Part shown: positions 1 through 5,712 of the stretch, one piece after another
How positions within the stretch are numbered: position 1 is the first letter of the stretch
Layout of the letters: each line of letters starts with the position of its first letter
Virus record (IMG/VR): IMGVR_UViG_3300030107_001446
Location: 96,001-160,000 of that record
Length of the DNA stretch: 64,000 bases
Source of the DNA: a virus
Direction: 5' to 3' (one strand)
The notes under the pieces: generated by a model
Told to the model about the DNA's origin: nothing
What the model saw: the letters and a program-made list of their open reading frames with translations, nothing else
Database searches by the model: none
Translations under genes and position numbers: made by a program

Positions 1-1
1 T

Positions 2-598
2 CTCGCTATGGAGTCGCAAGACGACAAGCAAATGATGAAAGCAGTGAAGACAATCATTAGAAACTGCACCAACCTGAAATCCAAAGTTGAAGACCTAGCA
101 ACATTTGAGATTGAATTTATATTCTTGAAGATTCGTGCTTCAGCAGTTGGTGAAGTTAGTGAATTTAAGGTCACATGCCCAGATGATGAAGAAACTCAAG
201 TAAAAGTTGAAGTACCACTAGGAGAAGTCGATGTTGTTATTCCTGAAGGACATAACAATAAGATTGATGTTGGTGGTGGTGTTGGTATTGAGATGAAGTA
301 TCCTTCATTGGAGACTTTTGTCCAACAAAATCTAACTGATACACCTTCACTTGATGATGTATTCCAACTTGCAGCAGGTTGTATAAACCAAGTGTATGAC
401 AAGGAGGAAGTATATGATTCTTTCACTAAGAAGGAAGCACTTGATTTCTTAGAGAACCTAAACTCAGAGCAGTTTGGTAAGATCCAAAACTTCTTTGAGA
501 CTATGCCTAAACTCTCTTATACATTAGAGGTAACTAATCCTAAGACAAAGGTCAAGTCAGAGTTGGTACTGGAGGGACTAGCAAGTTTTTTCGAGTAG
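2..598 (+). CDS. gp26: Baseplate hub assembly protein gp26 (5'-truncated; frame open at window edge)
   Basis: IEFIFLKIRASAVGE...CPDD and KYPS...FFETMPKLSY...LEGLASFF match T4-like gp26; frame is open upstream of the ATG at 8. Confidence 0.9.
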   Translation, partial: LAMESQDDKQMMKAVKTIIRNCTNLKSKVEDLATFEIEFIFLKIRASAVGEVSEFKVTCPDDEETQVKVEVPLGEVDVVIPEGHNNKIDVGGGVGIEMKYPSLETFVQQNLTDTPSLDDVFQLAAGCINQVYDKEEVYDSFTKKEALDFLENLNSEQFGKIQNFFETMPKLSYTLEVTNPKTKVKSELVLEGLASFFE

Positions 599-652
599 CG
601 TTAATGCATGACAGTCTTGAAAACTATTTTAGGACTAACTTCGCATTAATGC
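571..652 (+). promoter_or_regulatory. Putative -1 programmed ribosomal frameshift signal (internal SD, slippery heptamer, 3' hairpin)
   Basis: GGAGG 571-575; T TTT TTC 586-592 in gp26 frame; stems 598-607/643-652 and 613-622/627-636; -1 frame is open into gp51. Confidence 0.7.
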
Positions 653-789
653 AGCACCACAAATACTCTCTGACTGAATTAGAGAATATGGTACCATGGG
701 AACGTGATGTTTATATACAACTGCTATTAGCTCATATCCAAGAGGAAGAGCGTAGGCAAAAAGCAGACGAAAGAAAAATGTCAATGTAG
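604..789 (+). CDS. gp51: Baseplate hub assembly catalyst gp51 (possibly reached by -1 frameshift from gp26)
   Basis: NFALMQHHKYSLTELENMVPWERDVY is the cyanophage gp51 signature; directly follows gp26. Confidence 0.9.
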   Translation: MHDSLENYFRTNFALMQHHKYSLTELENMVPWERDVYIQLLLAHIQEEERRQKADERKMSM

Positions 790-3210
790 ATGTCCATCCG
801 TAGTTACGTTAAAATTAAACCTATATCCGAGAAGGGAGCTTTCACGGATGGTTTTAACGAGCTTCGTAAAGGTATTAATCAGACTGGTAAAGTTACTGAG
901 TCTATTGGTAAGAACTATGTTGAGACACATAAACTAATAAAGTTTGAGAAAGAGTGGTTAGCAGATAAGCAAGAGACAGACGTAGATACTGCTAATTTAG
1001 AAGATAAAGACGATAAGAAGAAACATAGAGGTTTTCTCTCTCGTTTTGTTCGCATGTTCAGGAGGAATAGACGAAAGGAGACTGAGAATGCAGCAGAGGA
1101 AGGTGAGAAAGATGCTGATAAGGATGTAGATAAGAAGAAGAAAGAAGCTAAAGGTCCGATGAAATCCTTTCTGGGGATGATTACTGGATTCTTAACACCT
1201 ATATTCAAATTCTTCCTAGCAATGGGTGTTTTGGATTGGTTATCAAAGAGCCCAGAGAAAGCTCAGAAAGTATTTAAAGCAATATTTGCTATCGCTAAAT
1301 TTGGTTGGGCGGTAGTAGGGTTTGGTATTAATAAGGTGATGGATGGTCTTACCAATCTATTTGGTAAGGGATTTGATGAAGGTCCAATTAAGAGGACTTT
1401 CAGATTTATGGGAGGTTTCCTTCAACTTGCATCTGGTATTGCAGCATTAAGGTTTGCATCCTACATGGTGATGCCATGGAAGTTGATAACTGATGTTAAT
1501 AGATTGAAAGATGTATTTGGTGGTCAAGCAGATCAACAGGGAGAAGCAGAAGCACAGGCAGCTTGGAGGAAGAAAGGATATAAGGATAAAAAGACAGGAG
1601 TAATATATTCAGAGAAAGAATATAAAAATATGCGTAAGTCTGCACGTCGTGCAGGTAAAGAAAATGCATTCCAACAGAGAGTAGGTCCTACTGTTAAACA
1701 GAGAGGACGTAACCTCAAAGCAGGTGCATTAAAGAAGTGGAGAAAGGGTAAGGGTGTAATTGGTAAGAAGATGAAGGGGATTGGTGGTAAGTTATCTTCC
1801 CCTGGAATGATGAAAGGTGTTGCTATTTTAGGTGGTGCAACACGTATTTTCTCAGGTATACAGAGTGGAGAGGATGCAACTGAAGCAGTAGGTGCAGGTA
1901 TTGGACAGGCAGCAGGTGGTATGTTAGGTGCTGCTGCTGGTACTGCATTATTAGGACCATTCTTAGGACCATTTGCACCTATAGTGGGTAATGCTATTGG
2001 TAGTTTCTTAGGTGAGTGGGTAGGTAAGACATTCTTACCAGTAATCAAACCACTATTTGAACCTATTGGTAAGATGTTTAGGATGTTGTGGGATCTGGTG
2101 AAGGGTTTAATGAAAGAGACTGGTTACTGGGATTTCCTTGGTACCTTATTCAAGTTTGTTGGTAAGTTAGGTCAATGGTTAATGACCATACTCGCACCAC
2201 TAGGTAACTTCATTAAGATAGTGATGGGACCTGCTATATCATTGATAGGGAAGATTATTGGCATGGTTATAGGTGCTGTCAAGAATATGATAGCGTTCGC
2301 AGCTAATCCTATAGGGTTTGCATGGAGAGTTATAAGAGGTAAGGATCCAGGTGCTAATGTTGACCTGGCAGAGGAGAAGGCAGAAGGTGGAGAGGTAAAA
2401 ATTGTTAAACGTAATGTACCTGTATTCTATGCAGCAGCAGGTGGTGCTATTAAATTAGTTAAAAGTTTAGCTGGTGGTGGAAACCCTGGACCTGTTAAGA
2501 TTACTGACTACGTTGGTAGACCTACACCAGATCAATTCGTTTATAGTTGGCAGCAGTTGAGAACTAAGCATATTGAGAAGACCCTTAATGGAGAAGTAGT
2601 TGATGTATCATCTTCCGAAGAATATGAAGAGCATCTTGGGTCAATTGATCTACATCAACTGATAAAACATAATAAGGATATTATGGATGAGTTGATAGCA
2701 CTCAAGAAAGCGAAACCTCATCATACTATTAGAGATATACTTCCAGGTGGATCCTTAGAAGGTAAGATACATCCTAGAATACTTTATCCAATACTTAATA
2801 ATAGTGTTGCAGCGAAACTGACGAACAAACGTGTGGAGACTGAGTATAAGAAGTTCTTAAAAGACTATGACTTAGTTTATACTGATTCAGAAGGTAATAA
2901 GAAGGTAAGAGCATACTCAATATACAATGAGAATTTCTCCAAGGGTGGTGAAACTCCTATAGTACCAACTCCAGAACCTTCTATACATCATACTGGTGTC
3001 CCTACCAACATTCAAATGGAAATGATGGTTAAGGATAGGGATGCTGCTAAAGAAATGACTGAGTACCACTTCGCTGAGGAGGCAATGGATGACATTGCAC
3101 CACAGGTTATCACTATTACAAGGAAAGTCCTTCAGCCCATAATAAATAACCAGGGAAGCGGTGCAACTAAAGTTGTATACACTAAACCTTCACCAATGTT
3201 GAGTTGTTAA
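790..3210 (+). CDS. Tape-measure/gp29-like virion protein, paralog 1 (806 aa)
   Basis: Charged coiled-coil N-terminus, Gly/Ala-rich amphipathic helical repeats (GAGIGQAAGGMLGAAAG), position just after gp26/gp51. Confidence 0.6.
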   Translation: MSIRSYVKIKPISEKGAFTDGFNELRKGINQTGKVTESIGKNYVETHKLIKFEKEWLADKQETDVDTANLEDKDDKKKHRGFLSRFVRMFRRNRRKETENAAEEGEKDADKDVDKKKKEAKGPMKSFLGMITGFLTPIFKFFLAMGVLDWLSKSPEKAQKVFKAIFAIAKFGWAVVGFGINKVMDGLTNLFGKGFDEGPIKRTFRFMGGFLQLASGIAALRFASYMVMPWKLITDVNRLKDVFGGQADQQGEAEAQAAWRKKGYKDKKTGVIYSEKEYKNMRKSARRAGKENAFQQRVGPTVKQRGRNLKAGALKKWRKGKGVIGKKMKGIGGKLSSPGMMKGVAILGGATRIFSGIQSGEDATEAVGAGIGQAAGGMLGAAAGTALLGPFLGPFAPIVGNAIGSFLGEWVGKTFLPVIKPLFEPIGKMFRMLWDLVKGLMKETGYWDFLGTLFKFVGKLGQWLMTILAPLGNFIKIVMGPAISLIGKIIGMVIGAVKNMIAFAANPIGFAWRVIRGKDPGANVDLAEEKAEGGEVKIVKRNVPVFYAAAGGAIKLVKSLAGGGNPGPVKITDYVGRPTPDQFVYSWQQLRTKHIEKTLNGEVVDVSSSEEYEEHLGSIDLHQLIKHNKDIMDELIALKKAKPHHTIRDILPGGSLEGKIHPRILYPILNNSVAAKLTNKRVETEYKKFLKDYDLVYTDSEGNKKVRAYSIYNENFSKGGETPIVPTPEPSIHHTGVPTNIQMEMMVKDRDAAKEMTEYHFAEEAMDDIAPQVITITRKVLQPIINNQGSGATKVVYTKPSPMLSC

Positions 3211-3213
3211 TAG

Positions 3214-5712
3214 ATGGCAACACCCGCAGTTAAAGTACAAAAGGCAACACTCTATAAGATGATATCTTATAAGGGTGCAACTTCTGGTGCTACAAAATAT
3301 ACTCCCCTAACAGCAGCTGCTGAGATGGGTAAGTTTAAGAAGTCTTTTAATACAGGTATGGGTGCGATGACAAGGGGTCTTAACTCCCTTGGTGCTACCC
3401 TGAACAGTATCTCTATCAATTCCCAGAACATGTTAGAGGGATGGAGAGATAGTATTAAGTCACAGATATCAGATAATGCTGCTCTCACTAAGAAAGAAGA
3501 CAAGTATAAGAGGTTAAAACTTAAGAGAGAGACAGATAGAGAGAAAGCAGAAGAGAAGAGAAGAAAACTTTTAGCCAGAGAAGAGACAGAGAAGAATAAT
3601 GAAGGTAAGCAACCACTCTTTAAGAAGATCAAGACGATGTTCAAGGAGGGTGCTAAAGCAGGGATAGGTGGACTGTTTGGTGGACTCTTAAAATTAATAC
3701 GTTGGGCTATACCTTTATTACTAGGATATAAGATACTAGATTGGGTGAGTAAGAATCCAGATAAAGTCCAGAAACTTGCTCAGGGGTTTGCTGCTATAGG
3801 TAAGTTTGTATATAATGTACTAGCATGGTCAGCAGGGACAGCTCTGGATGGTATTACAAAATTCTTAGAGAATCCTATAAGTCTTAAAGGTATCTTTGGT
3901 CTTGCACAGTTTTTAATAGGTGCTGCACCTATATTCTTAGGGTTTGCATTCCTTAAGAAACCACTAGCAACACTTAAAGCATTGAAGTGGGTGGTTGGAT
4001 CCCTAGGTAAGGGCATCATGAACATGATGAAATTTACCAAGGCAGGACAGAAGATGCGAAAGTTTTCTGTTGGTAAGTATGGTAAACTTCTTAACGGAGC
4101 TCTAGTTGGTACTGGTGCTGCAATGGCAACGTTAGCAGCAGGTGGTAGTGGAGCAGAAGCAGTTGGTGCGGGTGTTGGTGCGGGTGCAGGTCAGATGATC
4201 GGTGCTAAACTTGGTGCTGCTACTGGTATTCCAGGTGCGGGAGCAATAGGTGGAGCACTTGGAGGATTAGCGGGAAGTAAGATAGGTAAGGGTATCGGTA
4301 AGATGCTAGAACCCATTATCGGACCATTGAAAGAATGGTTTGGTATGGTCAGTAAGGTATTTAATGATGTCATAGGACAGATAAAGGAACCTTTTGAGCA
4401 GTTCTTCAAGACTCTTGGTGCTTTTATGTCGAAGATATTGGCAGCAATTGAACCACATATGCCACTCATTACTAAGATATTAGGTACAGGTTTTAAAGTA
4501 ATGTTCTTCCCACTGATAATGGGTATGAAAGCATTGACTGCTATTATGAAATTCTTTATGAAGGACGCAGGTCCTAAGGATGAAGTAGGTGGTGGAGGAG
4601 AAGAAACACAGACAGACACGACAGTAACTAAGAGCAGTAGCAAGGGTACCGCATCCTTTAATCCAGAGACAGGGAAGCGAGAGTATACTGGTGATATGAC
4701 TGCCGATAAGGAGACTGATCTAAGGATTGCTAAGGTTAGGATGAGAATGCATCGTGGTATGGATGATGAAGAAAGAAAGGTGTATGAAGATCAGATAGCA
4801 CGTCTCGAAGCAAATAGAGCGAATGGTGGATGGGAAATATTAACATCAGAACAAGCAAAAGAGAAGTATGGTGATATGGATTTCGCCAAGGGTGGATGGA
4901 TTAATGGTCCTCAGTCTGGTTACCCAGTATCATTAGATGGTAAGCAAACCTCATTCATTGGGCATGGTAAAGAGTGGGTAGGAAGAAAGTCAGGTGGTAG
5001 AGCATTTGTGGTACCATTCGACACTCCTGCTACAAGAAAGGATAGTTCTCTCACCAGTCGGAGAATGGGTGAAGCTGCTAGAGGTGGGTATAGTTTACCT
5101 TATTCCATAGGTGGACCTGTATATAATGTCAATGTTGATAAACTTGCTCCATCATTTGCACAGGGTGGCACTGTTGCTATAGTTAAGAAGGTAAGTAAAC
5201 CTAAAGGTGAAGACAGACCTACTGGGATGAAGAGAGTCCTAGCAGGGTATGCTGATATGTTAACTGGTAATGCGTTTGATTTTGACAAACGTGGTGACAT
5301 GAAGGATGGTATAAAGAATGTAATAAATCAGAAGAATGAGGAAGGAAAACCTGGTGGTCTGATGAGATGGATGGCAGGTGCTGCTGACATGATGACTGGT
5401 AATCTGTTTGATCTGGATGGACGTGGTAATGTTCTGGATGGTGCTAAGAGATTAAAGGATAATGTTGGTAACCAGATCAATGAAGCAAGAATTAAGAAAC
5501 AGGTAGAGAAGTTCCAGAAGATACATGGTGCTATGCATAACCCTGAGAATTATACTATTAATGAGAGTGGGGAACCTATTACTCTAGGTGGTGCAGGTAA
5601 GCAGCAAGCAATTGTACTTCCAGGTAAGAAACATTTAGACTCAGATAAATTCGTTAGACCTAAGTTTGGGGTCATTGCTGATGCTATGACTGAGCCCGTG
5701 GAGTTAATGTAA
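3214..5712 (+). CDS. Tape-measure/gp29-like virion protein, paralog 2 (832 aa)
   Basis: Same architecture as 790..3210 (LDWLSKSPEKAQK vs LDWVSKNPDKVQK; AVGAGIG vs AVGAGVG); AKGGWINGPQSGYP module. Confidence 0.6.
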   Translation: MATPAVKVQKATLYKMISYKGATSGATKYTPLTAAAEMGKFKKSFNTGMGAMTRGLNSLGATLNSISINSQNMLEGWRDSIKSQISDNAALTKKEDKYKRLKLKRETDREKAEEKRRKLLAREETEKNNEGKQPLFKKIKTMFKEGAKAGIGGLFGGLLKLIRWAIPLLLGYKILDWVSKNPDKVQKLAQGFAAIGKFVYNVLAWSAGTALDGITKFLENPISLKGIFGLAQFLIGAAPIFLGFAFLKKPLATLKALKWVVGSLGKGIMNMMKFTKAGQKMRKFSVGKYGKLLNGALVGTGAAMATLAAGGSGAEAVGAGVGAGAGQMIGAKLGAATGIPGAGAIGGALGGLAGSKIGKGIGKMLEPIIGPLKEWFGMVSKVFNDVIGQIKEPFEQFFKTLGAFMSKILAAIEPHMPLITKILGTGFKVMFFPLIMGMKALTAIMKFFMKDAGPKDEVGGGGEETQTDTTVTKSSSKGTASFNPETGKREYTGDMTADKETDLRIAKVRMRMHRGMDDEERKVYEDQIARLEANRANGGWEILTSEQAKEKYGDMDFAKGGWINGPQSGYPVSLDGKQTSFIGHGKEWVGRKSGGRAFVVPFDTPATRKDSSLTSRRMGEAARGGYSLPYSIGGPVYNVNVDKLAPSFAQGGTVAIVKKVSKPKGEDRPTGMKRVLAGYADMLTGNAFDFDKRGDMKDGIKNVINQKNEEGKPGGLMRWMAGAADMMTGNLFDLDGRGNVLDGAKRLKDNVGNQINEARIKKQVEKFQKIHGAMHNPENYTINESGEPITLGGAGKQQAIVLPGKKHLDSDKFVRPKFGVIADAMTEPVELM

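Follow-up and report, generated by a model that had tools for sequence, protein, structure and literature searches.

Gene content of the locus

The window analyzed here, 64,000 nucleotides from a marine T4-like cyanophage, spans positions 96001-160000 of a virus record of 199,258 bp, rated complete by CheckV. It begins inside gp26, the start of which lies 107 nt upstream (Table 1). The initial annotation of the window was accurate in its statements on the gp26 sequence, and the extent of the ORF had to be corrected, as the gene is cut by the window edge and encodes 234 aa in full (L188:1394-2098). The match to PF12322 T4_baseplate has an E value of 9e-57 for the part of gp26 within the window and of 1.2e-70 for the full gene (Pfam).

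The 3' end of gp26 reads AGT TTT TTC GAG TAG. The -1 frame, which the initial annotation described as open, is indeed open from position 544 and runs via CGA GTA GCG TTA into ATG 604 and on to the TAG at 787-789. It would add to gp26 the residues R-V-A-L followed by the 61 codons annotated as gp51, and this extension matches phrog_634 with an E value of 6e-28, as well as positions 239-276 of phrog_150. The slippery heptamer, the -1 frame and the 65-codon extension had all been placed correctly, CGA GTA GCG TTA ATG CAT being in frame with 604-789. The predicted gp26-51 fusion is 298 aa long. Its predicted tryptic junction peptide in the window is SELVLEGLASFFR, followed by VALMHDSLENYFR, and the zero-frame C-terminus is SELVLEGLASFFE.

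Table 1. Features at the gp26-gp51 junction and directly downstream, numbered from the first base of the window.
Feature	Position	Strand	Remarks
gp26, C-terminal 198 codons and stop	1-598	+	PF12322 T4_baseplate, phrog_150; product name baseplate hub assembly chaperone
GGAGG, SD-like pentamer	571-575	+	Possible local stimulator; 10 nt before the heptamer, overlaps gp26 Glu-Gly codons
Slippery heptamer T_TTT_TTC	586-592	+	X_XXY_YYZ phase, tRNA-Phe in P and A sites; proposed -1 tandem-slippage site
-1 frame extension, 65 codons and stop	592-789	+	Codons 592-786, stop TAG 787-789; phrog_634, Pfam Gp51_C
Zero-frame stop TAG of gp26	596-598	+	One codon past the heptamer; TAR here in 142/146 unique loci
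Two-tier hairpin	598-652	+	Likely frameshift stimulator; starts 5 nt past the heptamer, buries ATG 604-606
gp51 ORF, 61 aa from ATG 604	604-789	+	Called 'baseplate hub assembly catalyst' in annotation of relatives
Two tandem tape-measure-like genes	790-5712	+	806 aa, 790-3210; 832 aa, 3214-5712; follow the junction directly

The two long ORFs that follow match phrog_167 'tail length tape measure protein' with E values of 1e-10 (806 aa) and 1e-5 (832 aa), their best matches being lysin-labelled PHROGs. Each has a Gly-rich hydrophobic middle part. The T4 counterpart of this tandem pair is the single gp29, and in phage Cr30 an annotated tape measure gene is found two genes after gp51.

Conservation of the slippery heptamer and of the -1 register

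TTTTTTC alone is no commoner than chance would have it, as the window contains 8 copies where 12.4 are expected, and the significance of a frameshift at this site must therefore be sought in comparative conservation rather than in the single sequence. A total of 187 related loci were gathered, namely four GenBank cyanophages, four distant GenBank phages, 178 IMG/VR contigs retrieved with three different gp26 queries, and the window itself. Among them 182 were usable, with gp26 identities of 30-98%, and these represent 146 unique loci, 142 of which have the standard spacing between heptamer and stop.

Each of the 182 usable loci has its gp51-like ORF in the -1 frame relative to gp26, and the -1 and zero frames overlap by at least 25 nt in all loci. 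An in-phase X_XXY_YYZ heptamer is present in 144 of the 146 unique loci (143 with T_TTT_TTC and one with T_TTT_TTT). TTTTTTC precedes the stop by 6 nt in 141 unique loci and by 12 nt in two, TTTTTTT stands 6 nt before the stop in one (Cr30), and the remaining two, Salmonella phage Vi01 and Vibrio phage K351, carry no canonical heptamer. The alignment of gp26-gp51 junctions, which the initial annotation had proposed as a check, thus favors both the heptamer and the register.

Within the 142 loci of standard spacing, the entropy of the heptamer is 0.00 at six positions and 0.06 bits at the last. Its three synonymous sites show 0.00, 0.00 and 0.06, while adjacent third-codon positions reach 1.2-1.8 bits. 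The codon ahead of Phe-Phe varies (AGT, TCT, GCT, AAT or GAT), with T as the third base in every case. One lineage (L183:1850-1885) has its heptamer two codons earlier, in GGT_TTT_TTC_GGT_TTA_GCA_TAA, which is in phase and followed by a conserved -1 peptide. A variant heptamer, T_TTT_TTA, was observed in L190 (1350-1420). The junction of the window is shared by cultured relatives such as P-TIM40 (Prochlorococcus NATL2A) and S-WAM1, S-SZBM1 and S-ShM2 (Synechococcus).

Putative stimulatory elements around the heptamer

The initial annotation had drawn a two-tier hairpin after a 5-nt spacer, and RNAfold yields exactly these stems, i.e., 598-607 paired with 643-652 and 613-622 paired with 627-636. 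The minimum free energy (MFE) of the hairpin is -22 kcal/mol (z = -4.4), a stability matched by none of 200 shuffles (RNAfold), and the region is the most stable 60-nt window among about 180 in its own locus. Family-wide, the 60 nt past the heptamer have a mean z of -1.1, the minimum falling exactly at offsets 0-6, and in a third of the loci this segment belongs to the locus's own top 5% for folding. In some clades (L018, L171, L088) folding after the heptamer was found to be no better than background.

In the clade of the window the inner stem is largely preserved, and about half of the sequences retain the outer stem. In a second large clade the hairpin is another one, of 7-9 bp (e.g., CTCTTCC/GGAAGGG), which occurs in two or three registers. 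The RNAalifold consensus for each clade retained essentially no shared structure, owing to the differing registers of the hairpins. True compensatory changes in the two stems of the window are few: 619-630 changes from G-C to A-T in four sequences and 604-646 from A-T to G-C in three. Folding past the heptamer is enriched family-wide without being universal or homologous between clades, and the exact two-tier form occurs only in part of the window's clade.

Codon choice in this segment was examined with a permutation test, in which synonymous codons were swapped between sequences column by column in 200 permutations, uncorrected for relatedness. With permuted codons the mean MFE was less negative, at -12.2 instead of -15.3 kcal/mol in one clade and at -13.0 instead of -16.4 kcal/mol in the other, and the real mean was reached by 0 of 200 permutations in both (z -9 and -13.6). 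This result suggests that codon choice is co-adapted for folding.

Each arm of the outer stem (598-607 and 643-652) is a near-copy of the palindrome GCATTAATGC and codes for Ala-Leu-Met in the -1 frame (in RVALMH and FALMQ). Given that both arms resemble this palindrome, the outer stem is confined to relatives with TTA ATG at the first of the two sites. In addition, contigs from two metatranscriptome libraries break or branch at approximately 591-666, and one change, T>A at 636, is located inside the inner stem; these breaks and this substitution probably reflect strain variation in the hairpin region.

Concerning the upstream GGAGG, a 5-nt SD-like core occurs at this place in 59 of the 142 unique loci and a 4-nt core in 46. 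The initial annotation was right about its presence at 571-575 and about its dnaX-like spacing, but the element lacks conservation, no SD-like core being found here in the other 37 loci. We therefore rejected it as a conserved feature, all the more as the cores in the remainder stem largely from the Glu-Gly codons. In the -1 frameshift of Escherichia coli dnaX, the slippery site A_AAA_AAG is preceded by an SD and followed by a hairpin. The window has this layout, with an SD-like pentamer 10 nt upstream, a heptamer and a hairpin after 5 nt. The two cases differ in that the SD-like element is not conserved in the cyanophage family, and in that the shift would extend the protein here, whereas it truncates the product in dnaX.

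Coding signature of the -1 frame and the gp51 start codon

Over the first 18 codons past the slip site, the entropy of the -1 frame by codon position is 0.61 / 0.36 / 1.30. This pattern is a clear coding signature in the -1 frame, starting directly after the heptamer. The first codon past the slip is CGN (Arg) without exception, and the overlapping zero-frame residue is variable (E, A, G, D, V). The conserved -1 peptide reads R-[IV]-A-L-x-H-[DN]-x-L-E-x-Y-Y-K-T-N-F-A-L. Of 144 unique loci, 35 have an ATG where the window has its gp51 start codon, the others having CTG, TTC, TTT, GCA or GCG, and in 96 of the 144 the first ATG lies 19 codons inside the conserved peptide. No GGAG, GAGG or AGGA was found within 20 nt upstream of ATG 604. 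The view that the gp51 ATG is buried in the outer stem and has no good SD is thus borne out, with 604-606 inside the -22 kcal/mol stem and an SD core missing.

In the four GenBank cyanophages S-WAM1, ACG-2014a, P-TIM40 and S-MbCM7 (L001-L004), gp51 is missing from the annotation in two and called as 31 aa and 48 aa in the others; both of these calls begin at an internal ATG and lose conserved residues. A frameshift would explain why gp51 is annotated so inconsistently (31 aa, 48 aa or missing), because there is no start codon where one is needed. A non-AUG start of translation, at the Ile/Val codon past the slip, was also considered and rejected, as ATA and GTA alternate there.

The most serious alternative is that gp51 is a separate small protein, translated by coupled reinitiation at ATG 604 after the TAG at 596-598, the heptamer being a mere Phe-Phe end of gp26. 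The ATG 5 nt past the stop in the window would suit such a mechanism, and so would Cr30 and Vibrio phage K351, where an ATG overlaps the stop and likewise gives the -1 register; the two genes are also annotated apart in GenBank. However, the ATG is absent from 109 of the 144 unique loci, and the peptide ahead of the first available ATG is conserved and bears a coding signature. Phe-Phe coding needs neither the fixed synonymous sites of the heptamer nor the fixed third base preceding it. Furthermore, ATG 604 has no SD and is situated inside a -22 kcal/mol stem, and the homologous tail in T4 is fused to a gp26-like domain. Separate initiation thus fails for most relatives, although this phage, having an ATG at 604, may also translate a 61-aa gp51 on its own. 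We regard separate initiation of gp51 as improbable and -1 frameshifting as the better reading of the junction.

Homopolymer variants and transcriptional slippage

A second alternative is transcriptional slippage, in which RNA polymerase would add a U within the T6 run and no ribosome would slip. The site is a homopolymer, and assemblies with T7 or T4 at this place do exist. Known slippage-prone runs are longer than six T. Here it is T6 followed by C that is kept exactly, rather than longer runs, and structure is selected 5-9 nt downstream, as at ribosomal sites. The assemblies with T7 or T4, which are Pilon-polished long-read contigs, retain the out-of-frame stop, and this fits homopolymer errors. 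Public-run contigs were compared over positions 300-1000 of the window, using assembled contigs only. Those from two RNA libraries show T6 and no indel across the site, a weaker point against polymerase slippage, since contigs hide rare variants and are silent on translation. Taken together, slippage at the level of transcription is very improbable, and a ribosomal slip is preferred.

Natural in-frame fusions of gp26 and gp51 were also considered. P0010 (T7) and P0002 (T4) were rejected as probable homopolymer errors in Pilon-polished long-read assemblies, and the contig of P0017 has a further frame break upstream. Fusion-like gene calls of 294-301 aa in public data (L189:2200-2230, L191:2200-2230, L190:1350-1420) belong to T7 or T4 contigs or to a contig with a further frame break. 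Finally, a chance arrangement without effect on decoding, to which the ordinary frequency of TTTTTTC (8 in the window against 12 expected) would be congenial, can be practically dismissed, given that motif, phase and -1 register are strictly conserved in 144 unique loci of several phage families.

Relation to gp26 and gp51 of T4

T4 genes 26 and 51 are transcribed in divergent directions. T4 gp26 (208 aa) is PF12322 from end to end, while T4 gp51 (249 aa) consists of PF12322 at residues 1-201 (E 4e-52) and a C-terminal tail, and its residues 147-246 match phrog_634, the family of the small cyanophage gp51. The Pfam family of this tail is Gp51_C (PF28602), recorded on relatives of the phage studied here. 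Correspondingly, the 61-aa ORF of the window matches the gp26 PHROG profile at 239-276, directly after the stretch matched by its own gp26. The two T4 proteins share 20% identity (BLASTP E 2e-6). Leiman et al. (2010, PMC3004832, Table 2) place both among the hub assembly chaperones. T4 gp51 is essential, its function is given as unknown (Leiman et al., 2010, PMC3004832), and it is reported to be absent from the particle (PMC3004832).

PF12322 thus occurs in both T4 proteins, and the T4 gp51 tail is homologous to the -1 extension of the window, so that the tailless short form and the tailed long form predicted here would both have their counterparts in T4. Because of this domain layout and tail homology, the predicted fusion corresponds in architecture to T4 gp51, and the unshifted product to T4 gp26. 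The difference is that T4 employs two diverged paralogous genes on opposite strands and needs no frameshift, whereas in the window one gene and a slip would yield both forms, with an identical N-terminal 233 aa. The Gp51_C-type tail of the window is in the -1 frame, and its joining to PF12322 depends on the predicted frameshift. PF12322 is present in two copies in T4 and in one copy in this 199-kb genome, P-TIM40, Cr30, LPCS28 and Vi01. Separate genes for the short and the long form were not found in this genome, where a single PF12322 gene stands against the two of T4.

Cronobacter phage LPCS28 (Straboviridae, L088:1700-1910) has GAT TTT TTC GAT TAA, followed by a gp51-like -1 ORF of 57 codons that has no start codon and is unannotated in RefSeq, in a genome with a single PF12322 gene. 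Since LPCS28 is a member of T4's own family and keeps the frameshift layout, the arrangement extends beyond cyanophages. In Vi01 (L087:1800-2340) gp26 is followed by a gp51-like peptide in the -1 frame, but the junction reads ATT_TTC_ATT_TAA and lacks a canonical heptamer, and some 500 nt past gp26 are unannotated. Vibrio phage K351 (L086:1750-2000) also has a -1 gp51-like peptide, preceded by CTT_TTC_AAG_TAATG, in which the ATG overlaps the stop. As far as their sequences go, Vi01 and K351 may rely on a single-tRNA slip on U_UUC or on separate initiation.

Predicted tail assembly chaperone fold of gp26

Lambda gpG/gpGT is reportedly produced by a -1 frameshift. Frameshifting of this type is said to be conserved in the tail assembly chaperone (TAC) genes of long-tailed phages, including P2 E/E+E', and to be regarded as a hallmark of these phages.

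The predicted fusion is spelled out in P0010, a 301-aa ORF of a relative with one extra T in the assembly, of which an AlphaFold model was obtained (mean pLDDT 87). For its N-terminal 90 residues the best matches were 3fgx, 2ob9 and 3klu (Z 7.4-7.7), after which came nothing but generic helical matches to the tail. The N-terminal 100 residues of the phage's own gp26 were also modelled (pLDDT 76) and compared with 48,161 chains by VIA-align. The same entries came first, namely 2ob9 (Z 7.7, rmsd 3.4 Å, 82 aligned), 3fgx (Z 7.7, rmsd 3.1 Å, 80 aligned) and 3klu (Z 7.2, rmsd 3.8 Å, 85 aligned); no other of the 48,161 chains had a Z of at least 5, the next match being at 4.8. Foldseek on the isolated domain placed 2ob9 first (probability 0.90-0.96, E 0.06). 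With the whole 301-aa model Foldseek gave no significant match, so that the TAC likeness emerges only by VIA-align and with the isolated domain. The three entries are solved tail assembly chaperones (PMC9603447).

Z values below 8 and a Foldseek E of 0.06 would by themselves be only suggestive; the agreement on the same three entries between two models and two programs leads us to conclude, with moderate confidence in these predicted structures, that the N-terminal domain of gp26 shares the TAC fold. It is followed in the model by a second, alpha/beta domain of approximately 140 aa. No membership in a curated TAC sequence family was found for gp26, Pfam giving PF12322 T4_baseplate only, and a PDB sequence search returned no match at E up to 1. 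Because a curated TAC sequence match is missing, we describe gp26 as working like G/GT and sharing the fold, and not as a member of the TAC family.

The likeness to lambda gpG/gpGT consists of a canonical heptamer near the 3' end of the chaperone gene, products predicted to have a common N-terminus, a place just before tape-measure-like genes and, in the model, a TAC fold in the N-terminal domain. The differences are that gp26 has no Pfam TAC family match and carries the extra alpha/beta domain of ~140 aa, that the extension in the window is short (65 aa, helical), and that the pathway is that of a T4-type hub.

Proposed mechanism and implications

We propose that most ribosomes stop at the TAG at 596-598 and release the 234-aa gp26, while a fraction would move back by one base at U_UUU_UUC (586-592). 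In this phage the hairpin at 598-652 would promote the slip, to which the GGAGG located 10 nt ahead of the heptamer perhaps contributes. The slipped ribosomes would then read the -1 frame through the gp51 ORF and produce the 298-aa fusion with the junction ...GLASFF-RVALMHDS.... In such a scheme the long form would correspond to T4 gp51 and the short form to T4 gp26, a pair which in T4 comes from two paralogous genes. The pair would work like lambda gpG/gpGT, as indicated by fold, decoding logic and position before tape-measure-like genes.

The analysis shows how the site is conserved, how the two frames lie and where the -1 coding signature begins, together with domain architecture, PF12322 copy number and predicted fold. 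On these grounds it is highly probable that gp26 is decoded in two ways by -1 slippage, giving a short and a long chaperone; the slippage itself, its efficiency and the binding partners of the long form are inferred. The initial annotation had taken gp51 to be mainly a -1 extension of gp26 and the two to be a G/GT-type pair. This proposal gains support from the conservation of heptamer and register among all relatives of the cyanophage type and from the dispensable ATG, and further from the architecture of T4 gp51, the single PF12322 gene and the TAC fold of the gp26 N-terminal domain.

Moreover, we somewhat favor the reading that gp26/gp51 are the T4-lineage homologues of lambda G/GT and that the -1 frameshift is ancestral, having been kept across Kyanoviridae, some Straboviridae and other T4-related phages and replaced in T4 by gene duplication. 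In the full-text literature searched, outside subscription journals, we found no report of this frameshift or of another tail-chaperone frameshift in T4 or its relatives, in line with the initial annotation, which knew of no description of it for T4-like cyanophages.

On a practical note, in-frame 'fusions' at this site in long-read assemblies are probably homopolymer errors and should be treated with caution. None of the current annotations of marine cyanophage genomes, which number in the hundreds, includes the 298-aa protein predicted here. Its existence would place the T4-type hub chaperones within the conserved frameshift scheme of tail chaperones. Finally, the function of T4 gp51 would become testable, in terms of the ratio between short and long form and of binding to the tape measure and the tube, as for G/GT.
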